Part shown: positions 3,553 to 62,900 of the stretch, in pieces
Numbering within the stretch: position 1 is the stretch's first letter
Layout of the letters: each line of letters opens with the position of its first letter
Origin: Mycobacteriales bacterium
Lineage (GTDB): Bacteria > Actinomycetota > Actinomycetes > Mycobacteriales > QHCD01
Assembly (NCBI GenBank): GCA_040414495.1
Contig: JBEDUI010000081.1
Location: 528-64,527, forward strand
DNA: 64,000 bases
Direction: 5' to 3'
Position numbers and translations under genes: made by a program
The notes under the pieces: generated by a model
Databases searched by the model: none
Seen by the model: the letters and a program-made list of their open reading frames with translations, nothing else
What the model was told of the DNA's origin: nothing

Positions 3553-4215
3553 TTACGGACCAACTTTGGTCAGATGCGCCGACACCACGACGTTCTCCGG
3601 CGGCCGGCCGGGACGCAACGCGCCTCCGCAGCTGATGAGCCGGAGGGATGGGTACGTCGTGGGGGCGTAGATCTGCTCGGTCGGCAGCGTTCCGGGCCGG
3701 TAGCCACGGACGCTGTCGACCGAATACGTCGCCACGCGGCCGTCCTTGCGACGGACCGACATGGTCTGGTGCGGACCCAGTTTGGCGAGTCGGGCGAATA
3801 CGGCTGGCCTGCCGTCGCTCGCCCGGATGTAGCCGACAATGACGCTGGTGCCGGCCGAGCCAGGCGTCGCCGACCGGTCGTACCAACCTGCACGCGATGC
3901 CGGATGGGGCAGCTGCAGTTTGTGTTGGACGGTGCCGAGTCGGACCAACGAGCTGTCGACGCCCATAGTCGGGATGGCGATATGAACCGGATCCGAAGCC
4001 GGGAGCGCGGCCCCGCCGAGCGGGCGACTCGTCGTCGTTGACGATCCGTCCCGCCCGGCGTGTGGCGTCGGCCTCGCCCGGTTCGCGTCAGGGGATGGGT
4101 AACGCGAACCGAACAGGCCTGCGCCAAGCACGGCCGCCCCGGAGAGGATGAGGGCACCGACGGCCACCGACGCGATGATGCGTCGGCGACCGCCGTCGTG
4201 CCGTGCGCGAATCAC
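3553..4215 (-). CDS. sortase family protein, class F-like, with Tyr at the canonical catalytic His position
   Basis: N-terminal TM (IIASVAVGALILSGAAVLGAGLF), then IPTMGVDSSLVRLG...AGWY...GTSVIVGYIRASDGRPAVFARL...LRLISCGG...ENVVVSA, matching the class F sortase layout (xAGHVD....GPAVF / TCGG). The GTG start sits directly after the TAA stop of the upstream giant gene (TAAGTG). Confidence 0.8.
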   Translation of the reverse strand: MIRARHDGGRRRIIASVAVGALILSGAAVLGAGLFGSRYPSPDANRARPTPHAGRDGSSTTTSRPLGGAALPASDPVHIAIPTMGVDSSLVRLGTVQHKLQLPHPASRAGWYDRSATPGSAGTSVIVGYIRASDGRPAVFARLAKLGPHQTMSVRRKDGRVATYSVDSVRGYRPGTLPTEQIYAPTTYPSLRLISCGGALRPGRPPENVVVSAHLTKVGP

Positions 4216-7200
4216 TTAGAGCGGGAGTCCGCTCTCGTTCAGGCTGCTCAGCGGCGAACCGTTGGTGATCTGGCCAACCGGCAGACCACCCATGTCGGCG
4301 CCACCGAGGACGCTGGACAGACCGCCCAGACCCTGCAGCACGTTGGTCAGCCCAGTGATGTTCTGGACCGGCAGCTGGCTAACCGGAGAGGACACCGGAG
4401 CCGCAGCCGGGGCGACCGAAGCCGCACTCGGGCTGACGACCGGCAGCTGGCCGACGGGCAGCTGCCCGAGGGGCAGCTCCTCGAGCGGGTCACCGCCGAG
4501 GGCACCGGACAGACCGCCCAGACCCTGCAGCACGTTGGTCACACCGGTCAGGTTCTGGACCGGCAGGCCACCCAGCGGAGAAGACACCGGTGCGGCCACC
4601 GGGTGGATCTCCTGGGTCGAGGCCGCGGGCGCCGCGCCGCCACCGGCGACCGGCAGACCCTGCAGCGCGCTCGCCTGGCTCAGGACCGGCAGGCCCTGGC
4701 TCGCCAGACCGTTGCTGGCCACCCCGGCACCACCGAAGAGGCTGGTGAGCGGGTTGCTGGGCGCCTCACCCGGGTCGTTGAACGGGAAACCGTCCAGCGC
4801 GGCCGGGATGTGCATGACGTCCACCAGCGGGTTGCTCGGCACCGTGGTCGGGGTGTCGGTCAGCTCAGGGCTCTCGTTGAGCATGCCGTTGCCCTCGGCC
4901 AGCGCGATCAGGTTGCCGTCGATCGGCAGGTTGGTCGTGCCGGCGCCCTTGAAGTCCCGGGACGAACCCAGGTAGGACTCCGAGGGGTTGCCGTTCTCCG
5001 CGCCGTTGCCGGACGCGATCGCAACCACGTTGCCCACCACCGGCACGTTGATGTTGTCCGCGAGGTCAACATTCGAGCCGTACTTCTTCTGGGTGGGCGA
5101 GTCGAGCTGGGTCGGGTTGCCGTTCTGGTCGCCGTTGCCGTTGCTCAGCGCGGCGAAGCTCCCCAACACCGGGACGTTGACGTTGTCGGCGACGCCGAAG
5201 CTCTCGCCGTTGTTGTCCTTGGTGTCGACCTGCACCGGGTAACCGTTCTGCGACCCGTTGCCGTGGTCGACCGCCCAACCGGAGCCGTTCAGCGGGAGGT
5301 TCAGGTTGCGGAACAACCGGAACTCCGAGCCGTAACCGGAGCTGTCACCGTCCTGCGTGACGTGGCCGGGGTTTTCGTTGTTGAGCTGGGTCACGCCACC
5401 GTTCTGCGACCCGTTGCCGGAGTCGCCGGCCTGGCCCGCACCGGAGACCGGCAGGTTGACGTTGTCGCCGATGCCGATCCGGGAACCCGGGTTGCTGGCG
5501 GTGTCACCCTGGCTGACCAACTGGTTCTGCGTGCCGTTGCCGACATCCGCACCCTGGCCGACGCCGACCGCGGGGATGTTGATGTTACGGAACAGCAGCA
5601 GGCTCGAGCCCCACCCGGAGGTCACCGGGTCGGTGGTCGAACCGATACCAGAGGTGTTGTTCTGGTCGACCTTGCCGTTCTGCGACCCGTTGCCGGAGTC
5701 GCCGCCCTGACCCGCACCGTTCAGCGGGATGTTGACGTTGTCGCCAACGCTGAGGCTCGAGCCGGGGGTACGGCCGGTGTCGTTCTGGTTGACGACCTGG
5801 TTCTGCGCGCCGTTGCCGACGAGGCCGCCCTGACCCACACCCACGACCGGGATGTCGGCGTTACGCAGCAACTCGATCTGCGAGCCGAACCCACGGGCGG
5901 AGCCGTCCTTGGACAGCGTCCCGTTGTCGGTCCAGTTGCGCTGATGTACGTCGCCGTTCTGCGCGCCGTTGCCGGACGCGCCGCCCTGACCCGCACCGTT
6001 GATCGGGAAGATCGCGTTGTCCGCGACACCGATCTGCGAGCCGGGGTTGTTCCCGCTGTCGAACTGGGTGCGGTTCCCGTTCTGCGCGCCGTTACCGACG
6101 TCGCCGCCCTGACCCACGCCGATGGCGCCGCTGTCCAGGTTGCGGAACAGCTTGACCTCGGAGCCCCAGCCGTAGACGTCGTCAGCGACGCCGCCCTTGC
6201 CGGTCGTGGTCTGGGTGGTGTTGCCGTTCTGCGACCCGTTGCCGGTGACCCCGCCCTGCCCGACACCGACGGCCTGGATGATGCCGTTGTCGGCGATCGT
6301 GATCGACGAGCCGGGGCTGTTGTGGCTGTCGGTCTGGGTCGCGTTGCCGTTCTGCGACCCGTTGCCGGAGACCCCGCCCTGGCCCGCGCCGTTCAGCGGG
6401 GCGTAGACGTTGCGGAACACGTTGACGCTCTCGCCCCAACCGCCCACGCCGTCCTTGTTGACCCAGCCGTGGCCCTGGGTGTTGGTCTGGGTCTTGTCGC
6501 CGTTCTGCGCGCCGTTGCCGACGTCGCCGCCCTGGCCGACCCCGACCACCGGAATCGCGATGTTGTCCGCCGCGCTGATGGCCGACCCCTGGGTGTGGCC
6601 GTCATCGCTCTGGCTGACGTTGCCGTTCTGCGACCCGTTGCCGGAGACCCCGCCCTGACCCGCACCGTTCAACGGGATGTCGAGGTTACGGAACAGGTTG
6701 ACCGCCGAGCCCCAGCCCTGGATCTTGTCCGGGGTGTTGGAGCCCTCGCCGTTGGTGTTGCTCTGGTCGATGTTGCCGTTCTGCGCACCGTTGGCGACGT
6801 CACCGGCCTGGCCGGCGCCCGCGCCCTGCACGACCGCGTTGTCGGCGATCGAGACCGCCGAGCCCGGCGAACCGGCCTCGTCGACCTGCGACACGTCACC
6901 GTTCTGCGCCGCGTTGCCGACCACGCCAGCCTGCCCGGCACCGTCAATCGGCACCCGGACGTTGCGGAACAGGTTCACGGCCGAGCCGAACCCGGTGATG
7001 TTGTCGTAGCTCTGCGGCGGGTCGTTCGGCCCGAAGTTGGCCTGCGACACGTCGCCGTTCTGCGCGCCGTTGCCGACGACGCCCGCCTGACCCGCGCCGG
7101 TGGCCGGGATGTTCAGGTTGTCCGCCAGGCTGGCGAACGCCGGGTTGCCGCTGGGCTGATCCAGCTGCGAGATGTCGCCGTTCTGCGACCCGTTACCGAT

Positions 7201-8943
7201 GTCGCCGGCCTGACCCGCGCCGTTGAGCGGGGTGTTGGCGTTGCCGAGCAGGTTCAGACCCGAGCTGGTCGTGTTGTCCTGCAGCGCCTGGTCGACGTCG
7301 CCGTTCTGGGCGGCGTTACCGGTGTCGAATGCCTGGCCGGACGCGTTGACCGGCAGGTTCAGGTCGTCGACCAGCCGGAAGGCCGATCCCTCGCCACTGT
7401 CGCCGGTCCCTGCCATCGGGCTGGCGGCCGCGTTCGTCGTGCCGCGGTACGGCTCCGCCCCGTCGGTGTTGTCGGAGTACTGGGTGACGTCACCGTTCTG
7501 GGTGTTGTTGCCGGTGTCGACGGCCATGCCGTGCGCGTTGATCGGCACGTTGACGATGCCGGCGATGCCGTGCCCGTCGCCGAGCGTCTGGCTGACGGCG
7601 CCGTTCTGCGAGTTGTTGCCGCTGTCCACGGTCAAGACGTTGGCGTCAACCGGCATGTCGACGCTGCCCAGGATCCGCGACCCGTTGCCCTTGCCGACGT
7701 ACTCCTGGTCGATCGTCCCGTTCTGGGAGTTACGGCCGGAGTCGATGGCGGCCGCGGTCAGGTGCAGCGGAGCCTCGATGTCGCCGAGGGCGCCACCGGA
7801 CTTGGTGCTGTGCTGACCGGCCGGCGTACGCGGCTTGACGCCCACGTCGAGCAGCTCGATCTCGTGCCCGCTGGCCGTCTCGATGTTCGCGTGCGCGGTA
7901 GCCGCACTCAGTACGGTCTGCACCGGGTTGCTCGCGTCGGGCTTGAGCCCGCCGTCCGGTCCGATGCCCAGGTCGGGCGCCACCGGCAGGCCGGTGTCCT
8001 GCAGCGGCAGGCTCTTGCCCGCTGCCGACAGCTGGCCGGTCGGCTTCGTGGCCCCCGGCTGCAGCGATTCGGTGACCGTGCTGACGCCCTTGTTGAGCCC
8101 CTGCTCGGTCAGGTTCTGTGCAACCGGCAGGTTCCCGAGCATCGCCTTGGCCGCGTTGCTCGGCCCGGACGTCGCGTTGGCCAAGGTGTTGGCCGGCTTC
8201 GACTCGGGCGTGTTCTTCGGCGCGGCCGAAGCGGCTGGCAGATGACCCAGTACGGATCCGGCCGCCGGCAGTTGGCCCAGCGACTGCAGCGCGCTGGTCG
8301 GCGCCTGGACCAGGTTGGTCGGCGCCTGCAGCAGCGAGGTCGCCGAGTCCAGTCCAGGCAGACCACCGAGCAGCCCGCCGGACTGCTGCGGCCGGCTAAC
8401 CGGGTGCACAGTCTCGCGGGTGGCGTGCGTAGTGGTGTGCGCCGGAGCCGCGTGCGACGTGGCCACCTTGGGGGTGGTGGCCACGTGCGGGGCGGTGTGC
8501 GTCGCCGGCTGCGGAGCCGGAGCCGAGTGGGTGACCGGCGCCTGGGGCAGCGCGTGCTCCACGGTGCTGGTCGCACGACGGGCGGCCTTCACGACCGCCT
8601 TGGCCGGAGCCCCTGCCCGCTTCGTAGCAGCCCGCTTCGTAGCTGCCGGCTTGGCTGCCGACCTGGTCGGTGTCGCCTGGTGCGCCGGCGCTGCCGCACG
8701 GGGGGTCAGCGGCGACTGCGGCGAGAGGACATCGACGGTGTTGCTGACAATCTGCTTCGTGCTGTGCACCGCGTCCTGCACGGTGCCGTGCGTTGCCGAC
8801 CCTGACAATCCCGGCAACGCAAGTCTGGTCACGTCACTGGACGCCTTGCCCGGCGTGGAAGCGTGTGCCGCTCCCGCGCCGACCGCGACGAAACCCGCGG
8901 TGATGACGGCTGTTTCCAGTGATCTCCGGACCCAAGACTGCAT
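4216..8943 (-). CDS. 1575-aa secreted repeat protein (Asn/Gly/Gln-rich, solenoid-like), function unknown
   Basis: Signal peptide MQSWVRRSLETAVITAGFVAVGAGAAHA|ST, then an Ala/Pro/Thr/His-rich linker. This is followed by 22 repeats of N-[LIV]-x-[IV]-P-[LIV]-x-G-x-G-Q-[GA]-G-x-x-G-N-G-[SA]-Q-N-G and a duplicated C-terminal LPVQN[LI]TG[VL]TNVLQGLGGLS module. The antisense 1581-aa ORF (4060..8805) is a high-GC shadow. Confidence 0.85.
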   Translation of the reverse strand: MQSWVRRSLETAVITAGFVAVGAGAAHASTPGKASSDVTRLALPGLSGSATHGTVQDAVHSTKQIVSNTVDVLSPQSPLTPRAAAPAHQATPTRSAAKPAATKRAATKRAGAPAKAVVKAARRATSTVEHALPQAPVTHSAPAPQPATHTAPHVATTPKVATSHAAPAHTTTHATRETVHPVSRPQQSGGLLGGLPGLDSATSLLQAPTNLVQAPTSALQSLGQLPAAGSVLGHLPAASAAPKNTPESKPANTLANATSGPSNAAKAMLGNLPVAQNLTEQGLNKGVSTVTESLQPGATKPTGQLSAAGKSLPLQDTGLPVAPDLGIGPDGGLKPDASNPVQTVLSAATAHANIETASGHEIELLDVGVKPRTPAGQHSTKSGGALGDIEAPLHLTAAAIDSGRNSQNGTIDQEYVGKGNGSRILGSVDMPVDANVLTVDSGNNSQNGAVSQTLGDGHGIAGIVNVPINAHGMAVDTGNNTQNGDVTQYSDNTDGAEPYRGTTNAAASPMAGTGDSGEGSAFRLVDDLNLPVNASGQAFDTGNAAQNGDVDQALQDNTTSSGLNLLGNANTPLNGAGQAGDIGNGSQNGDISQLDQPSGNPAFASLADNLNIPATGAGQAGVVGNGAQNGDVSQANFGPNDPPQSYDNITGFGSAVNLFRNVRVPIDGAGQAGVVGNAAQNGDVSQVDEAGSPGSAVSIADNAVVQGAGAGQAGDVANGAQNGNIDQSNTNGEGSNTPDKIQGWGSAVNLFRNLDIPLNGAGQGGVSGNGSQNGNVSQSDDGHTQGSAISAADNIAIPVVGVGQGGDVGNGAQNGDKTQTNTQGHGWVNKDGVGGWGESVNVFRNVYAPLNGAGQGGVSGNGSQNGNATQTDSHNSPGSSITIADNGIIQAVGVGQGGVTGNGSQNGNTTQTTTGKGGVADDVYGWGSEVKLFRNLDSGAIGVGQGGDVGNGAQNGNRTQFDSGNNPGSQIGVADNAIFPINGAGQGGASGNGAQNGDVHQRNWTDNGTLSKDGSARGFGSQIELLRNADIPVVGVGQGGLVGNGAQNQVVNQNDTGRTPGSSLSVGDNVNIPLNGAGQGGDSGNGSQNGKVDQNNTSGIGSTTDPVTSGWGSSLLLFRNINIPAVGVGQGADVGNGTQNQLVSQGDTASNPGSRIGIGDNVNLPVSGAGQAGDSGNGSQNGGVTQLNNENPGHVTQDGDSSGYGSEFRLFRNLNLPLNGSGWAVDHGNGSQNGYPVQVDTKDNNGESFGVADNVNVPVLGSFAALSNGNGDQNGNPTQLDSPTQKKYGSNVDLADNINVPVVGNVVAIASGNGAENGNPSESYLGSSRDFKGAGTTNLPIDGNLIALAEGNGMLNESPELTDTPTTVPSNPLVDVMHIPAALDGFPFNDPGEAPSNPLTSLFGGAGVASNGLASQGLPVLSQASALQGLPVAGGGAAPAASTQEIHPVAAPVSSPLGGLPVQNLTGVTNVLQGLGGLSGALGGDPLEELPLGQLPVGQLPVVSPSAASVAPAAAPVSSPVSQLPVQNITGLTNVLQGLGGLSSVLGGADMGGLPVGQITNGSPLSSLNESGLPL
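4876..7791 (-). repeat. intragenic tandem repeat array (22 units; ~92-aa super-repeat made of alternating 41-aa and ~51-aa units)
   Basis: Counting residues, the xQNG/xQNQ/AENG cores fall at 406, 445, 481, 545, 586, 627, 679, 720, 771, 812, 863, 904, 953, 994, 1046, 1087, 1138, 1179, 1231, 1272, 1315 and ~1352. From residue 545 to 1272 the spacings are 41,41,52,41,51,41,51,41,49,41,52,41,51,41,52,41 (alternating after the first two). The long units carry G[WFY]GSxVxLFRN. Confidence 0.9.
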
Positions 8944-9034
8944 GGGAGATCCCTCTCTCTCGGATTCTGGCGGTGGTTACGTACGCCAGACAGGGGGGCG
9001 TACGGGACCCTCGTTGTGATCGCGAGAGAGCGGA

Positions 9035-10303
9035 TTAGTCAGGGGAAGTAGAGGGCCGCTTCGAGACCGAGCGGGCCATGCTGGCATCGGTCGGGTCGAC
9101 CGTTCCCAGCGTGCGTAGCGGGGCGTCCGCGTCGGCGTCCAGCGCCGCCGGGGCGCTGCTGCCGACCGAGCCGGAAGAGTTCGCGTTGGCACCCGCGCCG
9201 CTGCTCACACCGCCGGACGGAGCGGGCGGAGCCGCCGGCGCGATCGGGGTGAGCGGCTGCGGGTGCGGCAGGCCATGGTCGGCGTGGCTGATCCGCACGC
9301 TGATGGCGAGCGGGACGCTCAACTCGTCGGCCTGACGGGTCGGTCCCGCCGCGGTCGACGTCGCCGGGACGACGTGGCGGCCGGTCTCCCGAACGACCCG
9401 GTGCGCGGCAGCCACCGTCCGCTGGTGAGCAGCGGGGGCGTGCCGGACGACCGTCGCGGCAACCGACCGGACCACCGGCGTGGTGCCGACGACCGGAGTC
9501 GTTCCCAAATCCACCGGGCCGAGCTGCTCGCCGGCCGGGACCGAAAGGCCGGGCAGCGAAACGTCCGGAGCGGTGTGCTGGACCGTCTGGTTCACGGTCG
9601 AGGTGACCCGGTGCACGGTCGAGGTGACCGGCGCGGTCACGGTCGACAGGTCGGGTGCCTTACCGGAGATGGTCTGCGTAACCGACTGAACCGGCTCGCT
9701 GACCTGCTTGGCTACATGAGTGGTCTGGTCGGTCAGCGACGTGGTGGCGTGCCGGGCAGCGTCGGTGATCGGAGTGACCACCTTCTGCGTGACCGGCTTG
9801 GCCGCATCCGTGACCGACCTACTCGCGTCACCGAGCCGATGCTCGAGTTGATCACGGACCTGGCTACCGATGTCGGTCGAGTCGAGCGTCTTTCCCAGAT
9901 CAGTCGGATCGTCGGAGTGCCGGCTCGGAGCCGGAGCCGACGGAAGGCTGGAGTGGGAAGAGGCCGCGTCTTCGGTCGCGCTCGAAGCGCTGTGTTGGGC
10001 GCGAACCGTGACCGACGCCGTGTGCCGGGAATGCACGACCTGCGAGACCGCGTGGTGAACCGAGTCCGAGAGACCGGACACCGGCTGGGCCTGGTGCGTG
10101 GTCTCGTCGACGCTGTGCAGTATCGAGGTCACCGGCGTCGCGTCCTGCGGCGTCGCCGCGTGCGCCATGCCGCCAATCGCGGTGGCGCCGATCCAACCGG
10201 CGACCGCAAAGCCGCCGGTCACGAGGAACCGGCGCGCGATCCGGACCGCGGTGGAGCGCTCGGACGCCTGGTGGCGCCTCGCCCTCTCCGGTCCGAACGA
10301 CAT
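9035..10303 (-). CDS. exported Thr/Val/Ser/His-rich protein, function unknown (first gene of the sortase-linked operon)
   Basis: N-terminal basic region plus a hydrophobic segment ending AHA|ATP (RFLVTGGFAVAGWIGATAIGGMAHAATPQD). The body is low-complexity with V-T-x-x-V type repeats (PVTQKVVTPITD..., VTAPVTSTVHRVTSTVNQTV). Same strand as the giant gene and 91 bp upstream of it. Confidence 0.65.
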   Translation of the reverse strand: MSFGPERARRHQASERSTAVRIARRFLVTGGFAVAGWIGATAIGGMAHAATPQDATPVTSILHSVDETTHQAQPVSGLSDSVHHAVSQVVHSRHTASVTVRAQHSASSATEDAASSHSSLPSAPAPSRHSDDPTDLGKTLDSTDIGSQVRDQLEHRLGDASRSVTDAAKPVTQKVVTPITDAARHATTSLTDQTTHVAKQVSEPVQSVTQTISGKAPDLSTVTAPVTSTVHRVTSTVNQTVQHTAPDVSLPGLSVPAGEQLGPVDLGTTPVVGTTPVVRSVAATVVRHAPAAHQRTVAAAHRVVRETGRHVVPATSTAAGPTRQADELSVPLAISVRISHADHGLPHPQPLTPIAPAAPPAPSGGVSSGAGANANSSGSVGSSAPAALDADADAPLRTLGTVDPTDASMARSVSKRPSTSPD

Positions 10304-10724
10304 GCGGCTCCTCTGACGATGTGAAGCGGATCAGCTTCGCTCTGTCCGATTACTGCTACGCAACGTAGCGATCTTGCCGATGGTCTGCAAGTGCTGATTC
10401 CCAGCGTGTTGCGCGTAGGTCTAGGTGCGTTCGGCAGTTAATTTGTACGGCCATTAGGCGGCATTGATCCGCGCCAAACAGCGCTCAATTTCCGTGCTTG
10501 ATAGTCAAGCGGCTGCCCATCGTGACAGCTCATCGGGCCGCCCGGTCCGGCTGTTGTGCCGACCGCGACGACGATTCCGACGCCCCCGAACGGCGTCGTC
10601 TGTTCATCCGCGAACGCGGCGCCGACGTTACATCGCCGGTTAAATTGCCGGCCGGACTAATCGAGCCGCGATCTGCGCCCCAGATCGACCTGCCGACTCG
10701 ACCGTTCTGTCCTCGGTGGACTGT

Positions 10725-11489
10725 CTACTTAGGAGCGAGCCGAACGGCTCCGTCGAGCCGGATCGTCTCACCGTTCAACATAGGGTTTTCCACAATCGCG
10801 GCGACGAGCGCGGCGTACTCCTCGGGATGACCGAGCCGGCTGGGATGCGGGACCTGAGCCGCGAGCGAGGCCTGCAGGTCGCCTGGCAGACCGGCCACCA
10901 TCGGGGTTTCGAATATGCCGGGCGCGATCGTCATCACCCGGATCTGCCGGGCCGCCAATTCACGGGCGACCGCGAGGGTCAGCGACACGACGCCGCCCTT
11001 GGAGGCCGCATAGGCCGGCTGACCGATCTGCCCGTCGTACGCCGCGATCGACGCCGTGCAGATCAATACGCCCCGTTCCTCGCCGACCGGTTCGAGTGCC
11101 GCGATCCGTTCGGCCGCCAGCCGAAGGACGTTGAACGTCCCGACCAGGTTGATGTCGATGGCCCGCTGGAATTCAGACAGCGGCAGCGGACCGTGCCGGC
11201 CGAGCATCCGGCCGACGGTCGCGACGCCGGCGCAGTTGACCACCAGCCGCAGCGCGCCGAGCCGCTCGGCCGTATCGAGCGCGGCAGCGACCTGGTCCTC
11301 GTCGCGGACATCGGTCGGCCTGAACGCGACCGCGTCACCCAACTCGGCCGCCACCTCCGCTCCGGCCGAGCCGGGAAGGTCGGCGATGACGACCTTCGCG
11401 CCAGACGAGACCAGTCGCCGGACCGTGGCCTGCCCGAGGCCCGAGGCGCCGCCGGTGACGAGGGCGGCGACCGTGTCGTCAAGAAGCAT
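10725..11489 (-). CDS. short-chain dehydrogenase/reductase, 3-hydroxyacyl-CoA dehydrogenase type-2-like
   Basis: TGGASGLG cofactor motif and YAASKGG catalytic Y-x-x-x-K. Overall similarity to HSD10/FadB2-type SDRs ([24 protein letters not shown]). Confidence 0.85.
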
Positions 11490-12162
11490 GTACGGCTCCC
11501 AGTCGGATCGGCTCGATGTCCAGCGCGATACCGGACTCGTGCGGGGCGGCGCGGACCAATCGCAGATCGGGTACGACCCAATCGGCGCCGGTCAGCTCGT
11601 CGGCCCGGTGGGTCGTGGTGACGGCCAGCACGCGGCAGCCGGCGGCGCGGGCGGCCGCGATGCCGCTGGGCGCGTCCTCGACCACAACGCACCAGGCCGG
11701 GTCGACACCCAGCCGCTTCGCCGCGAGTCGGTAGCCCTCCGGGTCCGGCTTGCCTCGGCTGACGTCCTCGGCCGTGACCACAACCGTCGGGCGGCCCAGA
11801 CCCGCGGCACCGAGTCGCGTGGTCAGCAGCGGTGCCGTCGCCGAGGTCACCACGGCCCACGGCAGCGAGTCCAGCGAACCGGTCAGCTCGAGGGCGCCGG
11901 GTACCGGGACCAGACCGTCGAGGTCGGTCAGCTCAGCGGTCCGGACCAGCTGAACCGCCTCGTCGCGCTCCGGCTCGGGCAGGAAGTGGGCGACGATGTC
12001 GACATCGCGACGGCCATGTGCGACGCGCCGCAGCTCGTCAACATCTGCCCCGTACCGGTTGATGAACAGCGCCCAGGCCCGTGCGATCGGACCGGACGAG
12101 TCGACCAACGTGCCGTCATTGTCGAAGAGGAGGGCCGCACAGTGAGTCCGCATCGAGCGCAA
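11479..12162 (-). CDS. HAD-superfamily hydrolase (beta-phosphoglucomutase-like subfamily IA)
   Basis: [12 protein letters not shown] (DxDGT motif I), VVTSA (motif II), GKPDPEGY and [17 protein letters not shown] (motifs III/IV). Its 3' end overlaps the SDR start by 11 nt. Confidence 0.85.
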
Positions 12163-12213
12163 GCCTAGCCGCCCGGGACGCTCGGTTCCGCGCCCTTGTC
12201 CTTATATAAGAGG

Positions 12214-12246
12214 CAGAGCCCGCTCAGGTGAACCGAGCGGGCTCTG
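12214..12246 (-). terminator. intrinsic terminator-like hairpin after the HTH/Clp_N gene
   Basis: CAGAGCCCGCTC (12214-12225) pairs with GAGCGGGCTCTG (12235-12246), a perfect 12-bp stem with a 9-nt loop. On the minus strand it is followed by CCTCTTATATAAGG. Confidence 0.6.
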
Positions 12247-12260
12247 GAGTGCGCCGTTGT

Positions 12261-12944
12261 TCAGGTCGCCTGGAATCCGGCCAGGGCCTGGGCCACGTCG
12301 GCCCGCACCTGGTCGGCGGTCAATTCGAGCTTGCGCAACACCGTGCTGCCCACGCTGTGCGGATACCGGTCGATCGCCAGCAGCAGGTGCTCGGTGCCGA
12401 TGTAGTTGTGGCCTCGGTCGATCGCCTCGGTCAGCGCGCCGGACAGAATCTGGCTCAGCGGCGGGTTTTCCTCCGACGCCTGCTCGGCGGCCGCGGCCGG
12501 GATCTCGGCCAGCACCTTGTCCCGGGTAATGCCGTGCGCGATGAGGATCTTCGTCGCAATCGCCTCGGGTTGTGCGTACAGCGCCAGCAGTATGTGCTCG
12601 GTGCCTACGTATTCCTGGCCGGCCGCGGTCGATTCCTCCTGGGCCTTGGCCAGCGCAGCGCGGGTCCGCTGGGTGAAGCGCTCGTACGATGGCATGTTCA
12701 CTCCCGATGATGAGAAGCGCTTGTGGACGGCTTGTTTGCTCACGCCGAGTACGGCGCTGATCTCGGTCCACGTCTTGCCCGAGCCGCGGGCCCGGTCGAC
12801 GTAATGGCCGAGCAGTGCGTCGCTGGTTTCCGCGATCTGCGAGACCGTGGACGAGGCGGTGGCCAACTGGTCGAGCGGGTCGGCGCTGGGTGCGTCCCGT
12901 TGCACCGTGGTGATCAGGTCGTCGAGTGAGGGCGGTGGCGACAT
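12261..12944 (-). CDS. helix-turn-helix protein with two Clp N-terminal (Clp_N) repeats
   Basis: ORF 12261..13109 trimmed to ATG 12944 (GGAGG upstream). HTH segment KTWTEISAVLGVSKQAVHKRF, then two Clp_N repeats (YVGTEHILLALYAQ..., YIGTEHLLLAIDRY...). Confidence 0.8.
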   Translation of the reverse strand: MSPPPSLDDLITTVQRDAPSADPLDQLATASSTVSQIAETSDALLGHYVDRARGSGKTWTEISAVLGVSKQAVHKRFSSSGVNMPSYERFTQRTRAALAKAQEESTAAGQEYVGTEHILLALYAQPEAIATKILIAHGITRDKVLAEIPAAAAEQASEENPPLSQILSGALTEAIDRGHNYIGTEHLLLAIDRYPHSVGSTVLRKLELTADQVRADVAQALAGFQAT

Positions 12945-12972
12945 GGTGTCCTCCGTGGTTGATCCGATGTCG

Positions 12973-13016
12973 TCAACCGTAGGTTGACCGCCATGGATCG
13001 TCAACCCAAAGTTGAC
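12973..13016. promoter_or_regulatory. two tandem 17-bp palindromic operator-like sites
   Basis: GTCAACC-GTA-GGTTGAC (12973-12989) has perfect 7-bp arms. GTCAACC-CAA-AGTTGAC (13000-13016) matches 6/7. Centres are 27 bp apart, 29-72 bp upstream of the HTH/Clp_N start and divergent from valS. Confidence 0.6.
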
Positions 13017-13241
13017 CCGTTCGCTCACGGCGAATAGCCAGCCGGTTTTCTCAATACGGCCACGGCCCGCTCTGCTAACCTCGCCACCGTGAGGCCCGCA
13101 ACTCAGCACGTATTCGTAGCCACCACCTCGTGGCCGGGTGCGTCATGCCCTCACCGATTCAGCTGATCTGATTCATTGGTGACCCCGGTCGTACCGGGGT
13201 CACGAACTCCCGTACGGCCGGCCTGTCGAAAGGCCGACAAC

Positions 13242-15662
13242 GTGCCAGCGAAAATCCCATCCCCGCAATCCCTGCCCGACAAATGGGCGCCGTACTGGGA
13301 ACAGCAACGGACGTACGAATTCGACCGTACCGCCGCTCCGGACCGCGTCTTCAGCATCGATTCGCCGCCGCTCACCGTGAGCGGCACCCTCCACATCGGA
13401 CACTTGTACTCGTACACCCACACCGACGTGATCGCGCGTTTCCAAAGAATGCGCGGAAAAGCCGTCTGCTACCCGGTCGGCTTCGACGACAACGGGCTGC
13501 CGACCGAACGGCGGGTGCAGAACTATTACGGCGTGCGGGTCGACCCGACGATTTCCGAATCCACCAATGGCGTCGTTGGACGGGCCCGGTTCCGGGAATT
13601 GTGTGCCCGGCTCACGGCACGCGACGAGCAGATTTACGAACGGGCCTGGCGCCGGCTCGGATTGTCGGTCGACTGGTCACTGTCCTACCGCACCATGGAC
13701 GAACGCTCGCAGGTCATTTCGCAGCGGGCCTTTCTGCGCAACCTCGCCCGCGGGGAGGCGTACCGGTCCGAGGCGCCGACGCTCTGGGACGTCACCTTCC
13801 ACACCGCCGTGGCGCAGGCCGAATCGGTCGACCGGGAAATCCCCGGCGCCTTTCTCAGCCTGCGGTTCGTCGGCCCGGACTGCGATATCGCGGTCGAGAC
13901 GACCCGACCCGAATTGCTGCCGGCCTGCGTCGCTCTGGTCGCGCACCCCGACGATGCCCGCTACCAACGGCTTTTCGGCCGCACCGCCCGTACACCGCTC
14001 TTTGATGTCGAGGTGCCGATTCACCCGCACCGCCAGGCCGACCCGGACAAGGGCAGCGGAATCGCGATGGTGTGTACGTTCGGCGATCCGACCGATGTCG
14101 TCTGGTGGCGCGATCTCGCACTCGACACCCGGGCCGTGCTCGGATTCGACGGCCGATTCCGCACCGAGCCACCGTCTGGTGTGGACAGTGACCGATACGC
14201 GATCCTGGCGGGGAAATCGATCGAGGAAGCCCGGGCGGACATCGTGCAACAGCTCCGGGATTCGGGTACGTTGCTCGGACCGCCCCGGCCGGTGACGCAC
14301 TCCGTGCCGTTCTACGAGAAGGGCGAGCGCCCACTGGAGATCGTGCCGAGCCGGCAGTGGTATATCCGCAACGGTGGCCGCGACGAGGAACTGCGCGAGC
14401 AATTGTTACGCCGCGGCGCACAATTGTGTTGGCATCCAGAATGGATGCGTAGCCGCTTCAACGGCTGGGTCGAGGGGCTCCGCGGCGATTGGCTGATCAG
14501 CCGGCAGCGGTTCTGGGGTGTGCCGTTTCCACTGTGGTATCGGCTCGATGACACCGGTCAGCCCGGTGAGGTCCTCATTCCGGACGAGACCGCATTGCCG
14601 CTCGACCCGACTCAGGCCTGCCCACCCGGATTCCGGCCTGACCAACGCGATCAACCCGGTGGTTTCACCGCCGAACGCGACATCATGGATACCTGGGCCA
14701 CGTCCTCGCTGACCCCGCTGATCGGCACCGCCGAATTGACCGGCCCGCCGCGACAATTCGACCTGCACCCGCAGGCGCACGAAATCATCCGTACCTGGCT
14801 TTTCACCACGTTGTTGCGCGCACATGTCGAACGCGACGAACTGCCCTGGCGGAATGCCGCCATTTCCGGCTGGGTCGTGGATTCGCAGCACGAGAAGATC
14901 GGCAAATCCGCCGGCAACGCCGAATCACCCGAGGCGTTGCTGGACCAATTCGGTCCCGATGCGATTCGGTATTGGGCCGCGCGGGGCCGGCTCGGTTACG
15001 ACCTGACCTTCGACCTGAACCAGGTGAAGGTCGGACGGCGCCTCGCGACCAAACTCTTGAACGCGAGCCGTTTCGTGCTCTCGTTCGAGGCGACCGAGGA
15101 AATCGTCGACCGGCCGCTGGATCGGGCCCTGCTGGCCGGACTGTCCACAGTGGTGAGTGATGCGACCGCAGCGCTGGAGCTGTACGACCACGCACGGGCG
15201 CTGGAGCGTATCGAACGATTCTTCTGGCAGTTCTGCGACGACTACATCGAGTTGGTGAAGGAACGGGCATACGCCGGCTGCCCGTCCGCGCGGACGACGC
15301 TGCGGTCGGCATTGGCGCAGCTGCAACGGCTCCTGGCGCCGTACCTGCCGTTCGTGACCGAAGAGTCCTGGTCCTGGTGGCAGTCCGGTTCGGTGCACCT
15401 GACGCAATGGCCAGAACCGGGCGACGCGGGCGAGGACGCGACGCTGCACGCAGCCAGCACCGTGCTGACCGGCATCCGGCAACAGAAGTCGGCGGCCGGC
15501 CTGTCCATGCGCACACCGGTCGGGAGCATCCGGGTCGCCGGTAGCACCGACCTGGTCGCGGCCGCGGCCCGCGCCGCGACCGAACTCCAGCAGGCCGCGC
15601 ACGCCGACCAGATCGAGTTCACCGAAGCCGAGGGGCCACTCGTGGTCAGCGTGAACCCGTAA
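13242..15662 (+). CDS. valS: valine--tRNA ligase (archaeal/actinobacterial short type)
   Basis: Class I aaRS with HIGH motif ([11 protein letters not shown]) and a KMSKS-equivalent KIGKSAGN. The editing-domain signature [22 protein letters not shown]...[17 protein letters not shown] is typical of ValRS. Start moved from TTG 13176 to GTG 13242 (GAAAGG upstream); the start is uncertain. Confidence 0.8.
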
Positions 15663-15741
15663 CGCTCGGCGACCGCCAAGTCACCGATCAGCCCGTCCCA
15701 CGGGCAAAATCGAATTCTGGTCCGCCTCGTCTAGTAGGGTC

Positions 15742-16398
15742 ATGCCGATGAATGACAGGCTCGTATGGATCGATTGCGAGATGACCGGCCTCGATCTCGC
15801 CCACGACGCGTTGATCGAGGTGGCCGTCCTCGTCACCGACTCCAATCTCACGGTGCTGGGCAAAGGCATCGACATCGTCATCTCCGCCCCGGCCGAGAAG
15901 CTGGAATCGATGAACGAGGTCGTATCGGCGATGCACGCCGCCTCGGGCTTGACCGAGGCGGTCCGCGCGTCGACGGTCACGATGCAGGACGCCGAGCGGC
16001 AGGTCCTCGACTACATCCGGGAGTACGTACCGGAGCCGCGGACCGCGCCGCTGGCCGGCAACTCCATCGCCACCGACCGTGGGTTCCTCGCCCGCGACAT
16101 GCCGGCGCTGGACAACCATCTGCACTACCGGATGGTCGACGTGTCCTCGATCAAGGAGCTGAGCCGGCGCTGGTATCCGCGCGTCTACTACGCGCAGCCG
16201 GAGAAGGGCATGCAGCACCGGGCGCTGGCGGATATCGAGGAGAGCATCCAGGAGTTGCGGTATTACCGCAGCGCGATCTTCGTACCGGAGCCCGGGCCGA
16301 GTACCGATGAGGCGCGGGCGATCGCGGCCCGGATCATGAACGGCGACGCCGCAAAGGCCGATTCACCGCTGCACGAGGCGGGCCAGGCGGAGGCGTAA
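15742..16398 (+). CDS. orn: oligoribonuclease
   Basis: DEDDh exonuclease motifs: [44 protein letters not shown]. The orn/tRNA-His adjacency is common in actinobacteria. Confidence 0.92.
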
Positions 16399-16453
16399 GC
16401 CGGAGTTCCAGACGTCCGCTATGATCGTGCGGAGCCGCCGATGTGCGGCCCGC

Positions 16454-16530
16454 GGTGGGTGTAGCTCAGTTGGTAGAGCACCTGGTTGTGGTCCAGGGAG
16501 TCGTGGGTTCAAGTCCCATCACTCACCCCA
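16454..16530 (+). tRNA. tRNA-His (anticodon GTG), with encoded G-1 and 3' CCA
   Basis: Manual cloverleaf: G-1; acceptor GTGGGTG/CACTCAC; D arm GCTC-AGTTGGTA-GAGC; anticodon arm CCTGG-TTGTGGT-CCAGG; T arm GTGGG-TTCAAGT-CCCAT; discriminator C and CCA. Confidence 0.95.
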
Positions 16531-16537
16531 AGGGAAA

Positions 16538-16566
16538 GGGAGCAGCTTCGGCTGCTCCCTTTTTTC
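16538..16566 (+). terminator. rho-independent terminator after tRNA-His
   Basis: GGGAGCAGC-TTCG-GCTGCTCCC followed by TTTTTTCTT. Confidence 0.85.
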
Positions 16567-16664
16567 TTGCCCATCTCGTACGTGAATTGCGTCTCGCCGA
16601 TCCGGCGTCACTTCTGCGGCCGATCGCGCGATGAACCGGACAGCAACGTACTGAGGAGGACAAG

Positions 16665-17831
16665 ATTCCCAGATACTGGCTGTCGGTCGCGGTCGCGGCC
16701 GCATTGTCCGCGGCACTCGCCACACCAGCGACTGCCGACTCGCCAAACTGGACGCTGGACCTGCACGGGACCGACGCCAACGTCGCAGTCGATCACGGCA
16801 CGCTGCGCCTGGCCGACCCGAAGGCGCCGGCGTTGGCCAGCCCGACCGCGCTCGGTTCGCTCATCACCGCGCCGCACCGGCTCGACCGGCTCGCCACCGG
16901 GCTGGTCGCCACCCTCAACGCCGATATCCCGGCCGGCGCGGCGGTCCGGATCGACGTACGCGGCGTTGGGGGCACCGGCCGCTGGGGCGAATGGACCCCG
17001 GCCGGGGCCGCGCTGCCCGGACCGGCCCGAGTCGTTCAGGCCCGGGTCACCCTCATCGCCGCTCCGGACGGCGCCAGCCCGCGGGTGCGCGCGGTATCGC
17101 TGCGACCAATGGATTCGGGCGTCACGCCGCGGACCTCGGGCACCGCCTCGACGTACCGGGTATTCGCCACCCGCGAGGGTCTGGTCGGCGGCACCACGGC
17201 CAACGGCCACGTCATCGTCTCCCGCGATCATTTCGTCGCGCTGCCCTCCGGACGTGGACTGTCCCCCAAGGACGGCGGCAGCTACACAGTCCGGGTCTGC
17301 GCGACCAGCGGGCGCTGCGAATGGGCGCCAGTGTGGGACGTCGGGCCGTGGAATACACACGATGACTACTGGAATCCAGCCGCGATCCGCGAGGACTGGA
17401 AGGACGTAACCCAGGGCGAGCCGGAATCGCAGGCGGCGTACTCCAATGGCTACAACGGCGGTAAGGACGGCTTCGGCCGTACCGTCTCCAATCCGGCCGG
17501 GATCGACCTGGCCGACGGCACGTTCTGGGACGGACTGCAACTGACCGACAATGCCTGGGTCAACGTGACCTATTTGTGGACTGGGGCCGCTGGCGTGACC
17601 GGCACCATCGACACCGCGTTGAATGTCCGCAGTGGACCACACGGCACCGCTACCGCGGTCGGCTTGGCCGATGAGGATGCCCAGGTGCCGATCGTCTGCC
17701 AAACGACAGGCGACTCGGTCTCCGGCAGCGTAAAGAAAACGAATCTCTGGGATGAATTGGCGACCGGTTATTACGTTTCGGACGCCTATGTGGACACTGG
17801 GTCAACAAAGCAGGTCGCTCCGAATTGCTGA
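16665..17831 (+). CDS. secreted protein with RlpA-like double-psi beta-barrel region and C-terminal SH3b domain (putative cell-wall-binding/lytic protein)
   Basis: The ORF track starts it at TTG 16704, but the in-frame upstream codons encode the missing signal peptide (I-PRYWLSVAVAAALSAALATPATA|DS) behind a GAGGAGGA Shine-Dalgarno. The core YRVFATREGLVGGTTANGHVI...HFVALPS...WAPVWDVGPWN is DPBB-like. The C-terminal GTIDTALNVRSGPHGTATAVG...NLWDEL...GYYVSDAYVD is SH3b-like. The start codon is uncertain. Confidence 0.7.
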   Translation: MPRYWLSVAVAAALSAALATPATADSPNWTLDLHGTDANVAVDHGTLRLADPKAPALASPTALGSLITAPHRLDRLATGLVATLNADIPAGAAVRIDVRGVGGTGRWGEWTPAGAALPGPARVVQARVTLIAAPDGASPRVRAVSLRPMDSGVTPRTSGTASTYRVFATREGLVGGTTANGHVIVSRDHFVALPSGRGLSPKDGGSYTVRVCATSGRCEWAPVWDVGPWNTHDDYWNPAAIREDWKDVTQGEPESQAAYSNGYNGGKDGFGRTVSNPAGIDLADGTFWDGLQLTDNAWVNVTYLWTGAAGVTGTIDTALNVRSGPHGTATAVGLADEDAQVPIVCQTTGDSVSGSVKKTNLWDELATGYYVSDAYVDTGSTKQVAPNC

Positions 17832-62530: not shown

Positions 62531-62900
62531 CATTCATTCGGCCCTTGTGCGTCGCCCACGGGCGCTGGCTATCGGCGGCTCCCGCTCGATCTTGCTTCCC
62601 GGTCGGTGTTCTCGGTCTCTTCTGCGTCGCCCGGACGGATCCCCGTCTGACGGGCGCGGCGATCGTTCGATCCTGCTTCCCCACCGGCCATTCGTTCGGT
62701 GCTTGTGCTTCGCCTACCCGCGGGTGATCGCTCGCCTATCGGGTGAGTCTCGTGTTCGATCCTGCTTCCCCACCGGCCCGCTCGACTGGCTCTTCTACGT
62801 CGCGCACCTGCCAGGCGGTCACTGTCTCGGCCTCGTGTTCGATCCCGCTTCCCCGCTAGCCCTTCCGTTCGGCCTTGTACGTCGCGCACCTTCCGGGCTC
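62531..62900 (+). repeat. degenerate tandem repeat, 4-5 units of ~81-89 bp, non-coding
   Basis: Core GTTCGATCCTGCTTCCCCACCGGCC at 62665-62689 and 62754-62778, with variants at 62837-62861 and 62584-62606. A second conserved block cattc[ag]ttcgg..cttgt[ga]c.tcgc sits at 62531, 62689 and 62861. The unit lengths (81, 89, 83) are not consistently multiples of three. Confidence 0.8.

Follow-up and report, generated by a model that had tools for sequence, protein, structure and literature searches.

The window analysed here is a stretch of 64,000 nucleotides (nt) from a Mycobacteriales bacterium (contig JBEDUI010000081.1 of assembly GCA_040414495.1) whose content of guanine plus cytosine (GC) amounts to about 68%. 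Its minus strand harbours, at positions 4216 to 8943, an open reading frame (ORF) with a TAA stop codon at 4216-4218, the 1575-residue product of which contains a long array of similar units and will be referred to as the repeat protein. Two ORFs of about 1580 codons overlap on opposite strands between 4.1 kb and 8.9 kb, the second one reading along the plus strand from 4060 to 8805 (1581 codons). In view of their nearly equal length the minus-strand frame might represent a chance antisense ORF of the kind common in high-GC DNA. We rejected this explanation, which we consider extremely improbable, since only the minus-strand frame exhibits a coding signature (GC of 0.66, 0.52 and 0.90 at codon positions 1, 2 and 3, respectively), being the sole ORF of that stretch to pass the codon-position GC filter, since its ATG at 8943 is preceded by the ribosome-binding-site-like sequence GAGAGAGGG, and since homologues, found in at least six genomes and with the order of the repeats kept, exist for the minus-strand product only. 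The translation of the plus-strand frame, moreover, is rich in Arg, Val, Ala and Gly, as expected of an antisense frame in high-GC DNA. The repeat protein gene is genuine and conserved. The range 4876-7791, to which an earlier reading based on the letters of the window (the sequence-only reading) had assigned the repeats, corresponds to residues 385-1356 of this minus-strand product.

The units of the array (Table 1) are most easily recognised by the anchor motif GNGxQNG, which is present 22 times, namely at residues 403, 442, 478, 542, 583, 624, 676, 717, 768, 809, 860, 901, 950, 991, 1043, 1084, 1135, 1176, 1228, 1269, 1312 and 1351. From residue 542 onwards, consecutive anchors are separated by 41, 41, 52, 41, 51, 41, 51, 41, 49, 41, 52, 41, 51, 41, 52, 41 and 43 residues. 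The sequence-only reading had listed sixteen spacings, which match the first sixteen of the measured series exactly except that the reference point is offset by three residues, and had described 22 repeats with a strict alternation of 41 and about 51 residues giving rise to a super-repeat of about 92 residues. While the number of units is correct, the alternation of 41 with 49 to 52 residues is confined to residues 583-1312; units 1 to 3 are spaced by 39 and 36 residues, and a gap of 64 residues follows. A hidden Markov model of the unit counts 22 units each in the window protein and its closest orthologue, and 18 to 20 in the others. The string GNG[SAT]QN occurs 13 times in the repeat protein, whereas 2000 shuffled sequences contain it 0.008 times on average and once at most, and the autocorrelation shows peaks at lags of 41 and 92/93 which reach two to four times the shuffle maximum. 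We also considered a half-unit of 20 residues, equivalent to two coils per unit, as [AS][DQ]Nxx[IV] seems to recur at an offset of 20 by eye; it was discarded, the autocorrelation at lag 20 (0.12) lying within the shuffle maximum.

The seven super-repeats all pair an A unit, marked by G[WFY]GS..LFRN, with a B unit, marked by PGS..[IV]ADN, and contain in addition an insert of about 10 residues. The prefix G[WFY]G[SE]x[VILF]x[LV][FL]RN, which had been noticed before every second unit, is found exactly seven times, at residues 651, 743, 835, 925, 1018, 1110 and 1203. The consensus of the unit reads xxGSxVxL[AF][DR]NxN[ILV]P[VIL]NGAGQ[AG]GxxGNG[SA]QNGxVxQxD; the long repeat core proposed earlier holds as such a consensus, while only one unit matches it when it is taken as a strict regular expression. 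Among 42 units, N27, Q30, N31 and Q36 are conserved in at least 90%, and G3, G18, G20, G26, G28, G32 and P15 are retained in roughly three quarters or more. Positions 6/8 and 12/14/16 show an alternation of hydrophobic residues, and positions 25 and 34 are hydrophobic as well. In the terminal units 1 to 3 and 19 to 22 the segment G-A-G-Q-G-G is replaced by a hydrophobic strand (NVVAIAS, SFAALSN, NLIALAE), and these hydrophobic terminal units, which from their sequence look like the cap units of a repetitive fold, are retained across all homologues. With 19% Gly, 13% Asn and 7% Gln the composition of the repeat block is as noted before, as is the complete lack of Cys in the protein; the block is acidic (isoelectric point, pI, of 4.05) and hydrophilic (grand average of hydropathy, GRAVY, of -0.49).

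Profile searches, which had been proposed as a test for a known family, place the repeat in no family of Pfam or NCBIfam: the whole protein yields no match at E ≤ 10 in either collection, 15 single super-repeats yield none in Pfam at this threshold, and neither the protein nor the super-repeat profile finds a sequence match in the PDB at E ≤ 10. When the super-repeat profile (92 residues) was scored against 1.84 billion cluster representatives, nine of them were found, all from Fodinicola, Jatrophihabitantaceae or Mycobacteriales; they comprise the protein of Fodinicola acaciae, a second full-length protein and otherwise fragments. NCBI lists the F. acaciae orthologue (P0001) as "beta strand repeat-containing protein", a label which is descriptive, does not denote a family and has no model, structure or function behind it. 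A search of the representative genomes of 185,579 species, a set to which the genome of the window itself does not belong, revealed four loci (L001 to L004). The repeat family is undescribed, nearly orphan and phylogenetically narrow, its members belonging to Fodinicola-like actinomycetes.

Comparison of the units with each other and with those of the orthologues provides insight into the history of the array. Identity is 53% among A units and 50% among B units but 43% between A and B units, from which it follows that the A/B pair is the duplicated module. When the units are compared with those of L001, 21 of the 22 find their closest counterpart at the equivalent position (69-89% identity), with the best paralogue within the protein reaching 33-72%. 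The array was therefore in place before these genomes diverged, and its units are not undergoing homogenisation. At the DNA level the units share a mean identity of 56% (maximum 80%), and Tandem Repeats Finder reports no array with a period of 123 or 276 nt, its one hit being a two-copy stretch of 108 nt at 7480-7689 (75% matches). The earlier question of whether the units are homogenised at the DNA level, for which a dot-plot had been suggested, is thus answered in the negative. The repeat block as a whole is 77% identical to that of L001 with no insertion or deletion (indel) over about 1000 residues, whereas the flanks are 55-60% identical and do contain indels. This contrast favours a fold with strict geometry over a floppy spacer.

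To obtain an indication of this fold, two AlphaFold2 models were calculated, one (run 1) of the whole repeat block from an alignment of three sequences, the other (run 2) of three super-repeats for which in-register repeat windows from three proteins served as pseudo-homologues. We would like to mention that in the alignment of run 2 overlapping windows were staggered by MAFFT, the repeat phase still being correct. Both models are all-beta and of low confidence. In run 2 every unit forms four strands, at positions 5-13, 16-19, 24-31 and 34-38, which DSSP classifies as regular beta structure. The unit is thereby modelled as two strand-turn-strand elements with conserved Gly, Asn and Pro residues at the breaks. 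The prediction of a repeat segment which the sequence-only reading had called for has thus returned an all-beta arrangement of four strands per unit, albeit at low confidence. Mutual information among 146 units (effective number 70) contains a weak signal in that six of the 25 top pairs, as compared to about 2.4 expected, obey i+j ~ 44-47. This would fit a unit folded as strand-turn-strand, be it a hairpin or an arch, and is suggestive at most. Judging from the models, a regular beta architecture of the repeat block is likely.

Outside the array the protein starts with a leader which has the features of a signal peptide and is identical to that of L001 at 28 of 28 positions. Signal peptidase cleavage would take place after AHA and the protein is presumably exported via the Sec pathway, leaving a mature protein of about 152 kDa. 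The N-terminal flank shares 61% identity with that of L001, including indels, and closes with the conserved segment GHEIELLDVG just ahead of unit 1. The C-terminal tail contains two copies of about 55 residues (APVSSP..LPVQN[LI]TG.TNVLQGLGGLS) as well as the LPxxG-type motifs LPVAG and LPVGQ, and the protein ends with ...NESGLPL. Strings resembling LPxTG occur sporadically in some orthologues (LPLTG in L002, LPPTG in L003, LPTTG in L004), never accompanied by a helix and a charged tail.

Directly downstream of the repeat gene the window encodes a sortase homologue, which matches the Pfam family Sortase (E 6e-18, 65 bits, cut-off 26.6) and reaches 134 bits with the NCBIfam model class_F_sortase (NF033748), below the cut-off of 166. 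Such a homologue lies at most 2 kb downstream of the repeat gene in four of six genomes: it abuts the gene in the window and in L001, overlaps it by 11 nt in L003 and follows about 1.7 kb downstream in L002. All five copies found in this lineage have G-Y-I at the position of the catalytic His and all have LR[LI][IV][ST]CGG around the Cys, so that this Tyr-type subfamily may consist of pseudo-enzymes or operate by an altered mechanism. The five copies also possess a new invariant His near the C-terminus. We further observed a conserved gene of about 120 codons, which at L002:13484-13852 separates the repeat gene from the sortase homologue and at L003:3195-3554 comes just after the sortase homologue; the two products are 52% identical over 85 residues, contain one hydrophobic segment and match no family.

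Canonical class F sortases encoded on actinomycete plasmids have GH at the His site in seven of seven cases, and in all seven cassettes a gene for a small secreted substrate protein is situated directly upstream. The C-termini of these substrates (L005-L011; Kitasatospora, Streptomyces and Cryobacterium plasmids) read P.GG[VA].[TA]G, behind which come a hydrophobic helix and a tail rich in Arg; examples of the motif are LPAGGVAAGEGG, MPAGGVETGGG and PSGAPDTG, and motif, helix and tail together look like a class-F-specific sorting signal. The repeat gene takes the same place, with a class-F-like sortase gene immediately downstream. Its product differs from the plasmid-borne substrates in having only the loose LPxxG-type motifs and neither helix nor charged tail, and the partner sortase differs in having Tyr for His. 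The earlier hint at sortase substrates, made with regard to long chaplins, has its counterpart in a sortase-domain gene starting right after the repeat gene stop codon, while the tail offers no sorting signal. The physiological roles of class F sortases have been reported to be unknown, a quadruple class F mutant of Actinoplanes missouriensis showing no phenotype (PMC13251363).

The gene upstream of the repeat gene encodes a second conserved partner, which comprises a segment of leader or membrane type (FLVTGGFAVAGWIGATAIGGMAHA), a body of low complexity (Thr, Ser, Val and Ala) and a conserved C-terminus ending with ...RSVSKRPSTSPD. The family, made up of presumably secreted low-complexity proteins, is characterised by an N-terminal hydrophobic segment and the C-terminal signature ...R.V[RS][NK]....P[SP].SPD, has no match in Pfam or NCBIfam where tested, and is always located directly upstream of a gene for a giant leader-bearing repeat protein. 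It precedes the repeat gene in those relatives for which the upstream side is available (L001, L002, L004 and L012), in L003 being found with the second cassette only, and it also precedes genes for two further types of large protein, a poly-chaplin and a Cys-repeat protein. In F. acaciae a secreted protein of 239 residues ending with ...RVRNAALDPSVSPD precedes the orthologue, and 2 kb downstream of the latter a second partner ending with ...AKPSVSPD is followed by a poly-chaplin of ten domains. The leader of this poly-chaplin, VNIWLRRSLQGLILTGGFVVMGAAAAHA, is identical to that of the window protein at 11 of 22 positions (pairwise E 7e-7), and the protein has a classical sorting signal in which LPVTG, a membrane helix and RRR succeed one another. 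F. feengrottensis has a matching layout with a chaplin protein of about ten tandem domains, again with a period of about 52 residues, at L004 about 15255-17600. Streptomyces chaplins contain one or two domains, the long chaplins having only two. Measured against these, the ten-domain Fodinicola proteins would be unusually long chaplins. The third cargo, encoded in L003, has two Cys residues 18 residues apart in each repeat, as in chaplins, yet no Pfam chaplin domain, and its repeats are unrelated to the 41-residue units; its sorting signal is made up of the motif PGGAPDTGGG, a helix and RR, and a Tyr-type sortase homologue follows. These genes form a lineage-specific cassette family composed of a "...SPD" partner, a giant repeat protein with a WxRRSL leader and, in part of the cases, a class-F-like sortase homologue.

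Table 1. Positions of the features described in the text; coordinates without a locus prefix refer to the window
Feature	Position	Strand	Remarks
22-unit array	4846..7809	minus	residues 379-1366; 41 residues per unit; from unit profile and spacing
Seven A/B super-repeats	5062..6993	minus	residues 651-1294; 90-93 residues each
Leader (putative signal peptide)	8860..8943	minus	residues 1-28; MQSWVRRSLETAVITAGFVAVGAGAAHA followed by S; positive n-region, hydrophobic core, AHA cleavage-type motif
N-terminal flank	7810..8859	minus	residues 29-378; Pro/Ala/Thr/Ser-rich, low complexity, basic (pI 10.0)
C-terminal tail	4219..4767	minus	residues 1393-1575; Gly/Leu/Pro/Ala/Ser-rich, no Lys or Arg, GRAVY +0.43
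Sortase-domain gene	3553..4215	minus	220 residues; GTG start immediately after the TAA of the repeat gene; N-terminal membrane helix
Upstream partner gene	9035..10303	minus	422 residues; 91 nt upstream of the repeat gene, same strand
Tyr-type sortase copies	3553-4215 (window); L001:13724-14446; L002 about 14150-14828; L003:2331-3179; L003 about 9198-9629	minus (window)	
Partner family	9035-10303 (window); L001:7453-8841; L002:7786-8745; L003:3789-5036; L012:4151-4870 and 10306-11175; L004, ORFs ending near 8384 and 15120	minus (window)	
Repeat-gene locus	L001		Mycobacteriales metagenome-assembled genome; closest orthologue, 76% identical in best segment, syntenic
Repeat-gene loci	L002, L003		Jatrophihabitantaceae metagenome-assembled genomes
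Repeat-gene locus	L004		Fodinicola feengrottensis
Repeat-gene orthologue	L012:5001-9299		Fodinicola acaciae
Poly-chaplin	L012:11293-13335		F. acaciae; 680 residues, ten PF03777 domains (E 1.9e-67), period about 52 residues
Third cargo	L003:5128-9009		1293 residues; WxRRSL-type leader, about eleven Cys repeats (ASQQAITAVGGLMQNPCGSADASLLFETSTAFGGC), CARDB-type immunoglobulin-like repeats

Elsewhere in the window, a search revealed no additional paralogues, leaders or chaplin motifs. The only RNA gene detected in the window is a tRNA-His gene (GTG) at 16455-16530 on the plus strand. Between 62200 and 64000 (about 1.8 kb) there is no ORF in any frame; the plus strand is strongly pyrimidine-rich here (AT skew -0.35), direct repeats about 85-90 nt apart, with GTTCGATCCTGCTTCCCCACCGGCC present three times, are located at about 62644-62900, and Rfam finds nothing in this region at its gathering thresholds.

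On balance we are inclined, with slightly better than even confidence, to regard the repeat protein as a secreted structural surface protein with a regular beta fold. A true solenoid is a possible form of this fold which would take up roughly a third of that expectation. A number of observations weigh against such a protein. The model of the whole block (run 1; predicted local distance difference test, pLDDT, 34; predicted template modelling score, pTM, 0.33) is unusable and that of three super-repeats (run 2; pLDDT 49, pTM 0.43) is likewise of low confidence, with pLDDT below 50 for most residues in both, a result which disorder would yield as well. Foldseek finds no match in the PDB at E ≤ 0.001, the best E being 0.036 and the TM-scores ranging from 0.07 to 0.18. 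The non-significant rows are mostly beta-solenoids and functional amyloids (SufD, FapC, CsgA, LpxD, tapirin, pectate lyases), which at this confidence has little meaning. The regular all-beta prediction is in keeping with the earlier proposal of a beta-solenoid or amyloid-like fibre, but it neither establishes nor refutes a solenoid as such. With regard to a location at the cell surface, the C-terminal tail lacks an LPXTG, LAXTG or class-F-type P.GG..[TA]G motif with helix and charged tail, and Pfam and NCBIfam reveal no known wall-binding domain in the protein. The sortase homologue of the window retains the Cys motif LRLISCGG but has GYI in place of GH at the catalytic His site and, lacking this residue, may be inactive; in the two Fodinicola genomes there is no sortase beside the repeat gene at all. 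Finally, the F. feengrottensis orthologue (L004:8456-13050) is broken into three ORFs (8456-10495, 10528-11001 and 11359-13050), in which NCBI annotates a 188-residue "hypothetical protein" fragment; this may be a pseudogene, or else an assembly or frameshift error in a repetitive region.

The vicinity of the poly-chaplin raises the question of whether the 41-residue unit is itself a far-diverged chaplin domain which has lost its Cys residues and become hydrophilic. In that case the protein would be an amyloid-like fibre of the chaplin type with its units covalently concatenated, and would genuinely, though remotely, belong to the chaplin superfamily. In both Fodinicola genomes the leader and the paralogous upstream partner are common to the repeat protein and the poly-chaplin 2 kb away, and the period of the latter, about 52 residues, approximates an A unit plus insert. 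A collinear motif, GS.[VIL]..GN ... [VI]N.P[VI]..G[NQ].[VA][AI], can be traced in both and is best seen in terminal units, such as NINVPVVGNVVAIAS as compared to VNAPVTVCGNSVAVLG. Furthermore, hhalign aligns the terminal units with chaplin domains at a probability of 3.0% (P 0.015; 27 collinear columns in a relaxed alignment), for which column-shuffle nulls (300 shuffles) give an empirical P of 0.01. Against this, neither the whole protein nor any of 15 single super-repeats matches the Pfam family ChpA-C (PF03777) at E ≤ 10, while the Fodinicola neighbour protein, used as positive control, scores 223 bits with ten domains, and the ChpH query, 99% identical to real ChpH, retrieved more than 7000 PF03777 proteins. 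For 42 units the hhalign probability is 0.75% versus ChpH and 1.0% versus Fodinicola plus ChpH chaplin domains, the latter over nine columns (xNxP[IV]xGxG versus VNAPVTVCG), and confident alignment covers just five to nine columns. For all units the empirical P amounts to 0.07, the all-unit comparison scoring 10.7 and its reversed control hardly less (9.5). ChpH and the poly-chaplin have GRAVY values of +0.60 and +0.18, respectively, far from that of the repeat block, which contains no Cys. Common leaders and partners moreover indicate a common route of export or assembly rather than homology of the cargos, given that the unrelated Cys-repeat cargo uses the same cassette. Chaplins do resemble the repeat protein in being secreted actinomycete proteins with units of about 40-50 residues, predicted beta-rich structure and the short [VI]N.P[VI]..G[NQ] motif, and its leader and type of upstream partner match those of the ten-domain Fodinicola chaplin, with a sortase-family gene adjoining the window gene. 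They differ in that the repeat protein is acidic and hydrophilic instead of hydrophobic and surface-active, lacks LAXTG or LPXTG plus membrane helix, and comprises 22 units instead of the one or two domains of Streptomyces chaplins. The faint chaplin resemblance noted earlier does not reach significance at the sequence level, while the gene context does connect the repeat protein with chaplins. Membership of the chaplin family is not supported, a very distant common origin is only possible, and we judge the reading of the protein as a diverged chaplin to be unlikely.

It is also conceivable that the repeat block has no fixed fold and serves as a disordered, hydrophilic spacer or matrix rich in Gly, Asn and Gln which holds water or fills space around the hyphae, its periodicity merely recording duplications. 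The low pLDDT of both models and the high content of these residues together with few hydrophobic ones would suit such a spacer, and one report is concerned with a putative intrinsically disordered wall-anchored protein from another actinomycete (PMC13293333). A disordered spacer would, however, hardly account for the conservation of N27, Q30, N31, Q36 and of the Gly and Pro positions listed above, for the alternation of hydrophobic positions 6/8/12/14/16/34, for a unit length kept without a single indel next to low-complexity flanks which do accept them, or for cap-like terminal units kept across genomes, and DSSP assigns regular beta structure instead of coil to the models; we hold this explanation to be quite improbable. 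In a further alternative the array would form a flat lattice of Thr, Ser, Asn, Gln and Asp side chains with affinity for an ordered ligand, for instance ice, the surface of a mineral or metal ions, similar to ice-binding or ice-nucleating beta-solenoids or to calcium beta-rolls. Each unit contains an x-[TS]-Q-[TS]-[DN] segment, Asp is abundant in keeping with the low pI of the block, and G[WFY]GS is reminiscent of the GYGS of ice-nucleation repeats. F. feengrottensis, in addition, originates from acidic, metal-rich rock (PMC7232338), while other members of the family come from plant roots and from metagenome-assembled genomes of soil. At E ≤ 10 Pfam reports no match to any repeat family, ice-nucleation and HemolysinCabind included, and the GGxGxD nonapeptide of calcium rolls does not, by eye, fit the unit; calcium-binding nonapeptides and ice-nucleation repeats, both considered by eye, were dropped for want of Pfam support. 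A ligand-binding lattice seems very unlikely to us.

The structural surface protein which we prefer invites comparison with the curli subunit CsgA and with Fap (PF07012; PDB entries 8c50 and 9u4u). These functional-amyloid beta-solenoids, too, consist of imperfect tandem repeats in which certain positions are conserved as Gln, Asn or Gly, following a pattern like Q-x-G-x-x-G-N-G-x-Q, and are predicted to be all-beta, and CsgA and FapC are among the top Foldseek rows for the repeat model, at a non-significant level and with TM-scores of about 0.1. In contrast to curli, the unit measures 41 instead of about 20-23 residues and has no significant sub-period of 20 residues, there is no match to Curlin_rpt at E ≤ 10, the protein is a single chain of 1575 residues instead of a small polymerising subunit, and genes for curli-type secretion or nucleation are absent from the neighbourhood.

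As to how such a structural protein might be built, its core would be an ancient, acidic and hydrophilic array of 22 tandem 41-residue units paired as A and B, each unit supplying four short strands in the form of two strand-turn-strand elements, with invariant Asn, Gln and Gly at the turns and the few alternating hydrophobic residues pointing inward. The units would stack into one long, rigid, beta-rich rod, either a solenoid or an arcade of stacked hairpins, with the hydrophobic terminal units acting as caps, while the basic Pro/Ala-rich N-terminal segment and the Gly/Leu/Pro-rich tail might hold this rod off the hypha. The Tyr-for-His sortase homologue may process or tether the protein via the LPxxG-type motifs of the tail, and the route of export and assembly, consisting of leader, "...SPD" partner and sometimes sortase homologue, would be common with chaplin-type proteins. 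In Fodinicola-like filamentous actinomycetes the repeat protein would most likely be a structural component of a fibre or sheath of the hyphal surface; Fodinicola is known to form abundant aerial hyphae (PMC7232338).

A more far-reaching interpretation is that the WxRRSL leader, the "...SPD" partner and the Tyr-type sortase make up an unrecognised surface-assembly system handling interchangeable giant cargos, and that the 22-unit protein is a hydrophilic, Cys-free descendant of the chaplin fold which forms a single-chain, pre-assembled amyloid-like rod attached in a non-canonical manner without LPXTG. Although we regard this as a rather improbable scenario, it would, if true, for the first time place class-F-type sortases, the roles of which are described as unknown (PMC13251363), in a physiological setting.

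Secreted repeat proteins encoded beside sortases are as such familiar. What distinguishes the present case is the undescribed repeat family, its exact hierarchy and a cassette with interchangeable cargos which include ten-domain chaplins. The family is nearly orphan and its hierarchy unusually strict; should the fold prove to be a solenoid or an arcade, it would represent a new sequence class of beta-rods with Asn/Gln ladders. Its gene context ties the repeat protein to two poorly understood topics, the building of hyphal surfaces outside Streptomyces and the role of class-F-type sortases, and the conserved cassette, in which a giant cargo is accompanied by a sortase homologue with Tyr for His, opens the question of the class F role to direct testing.

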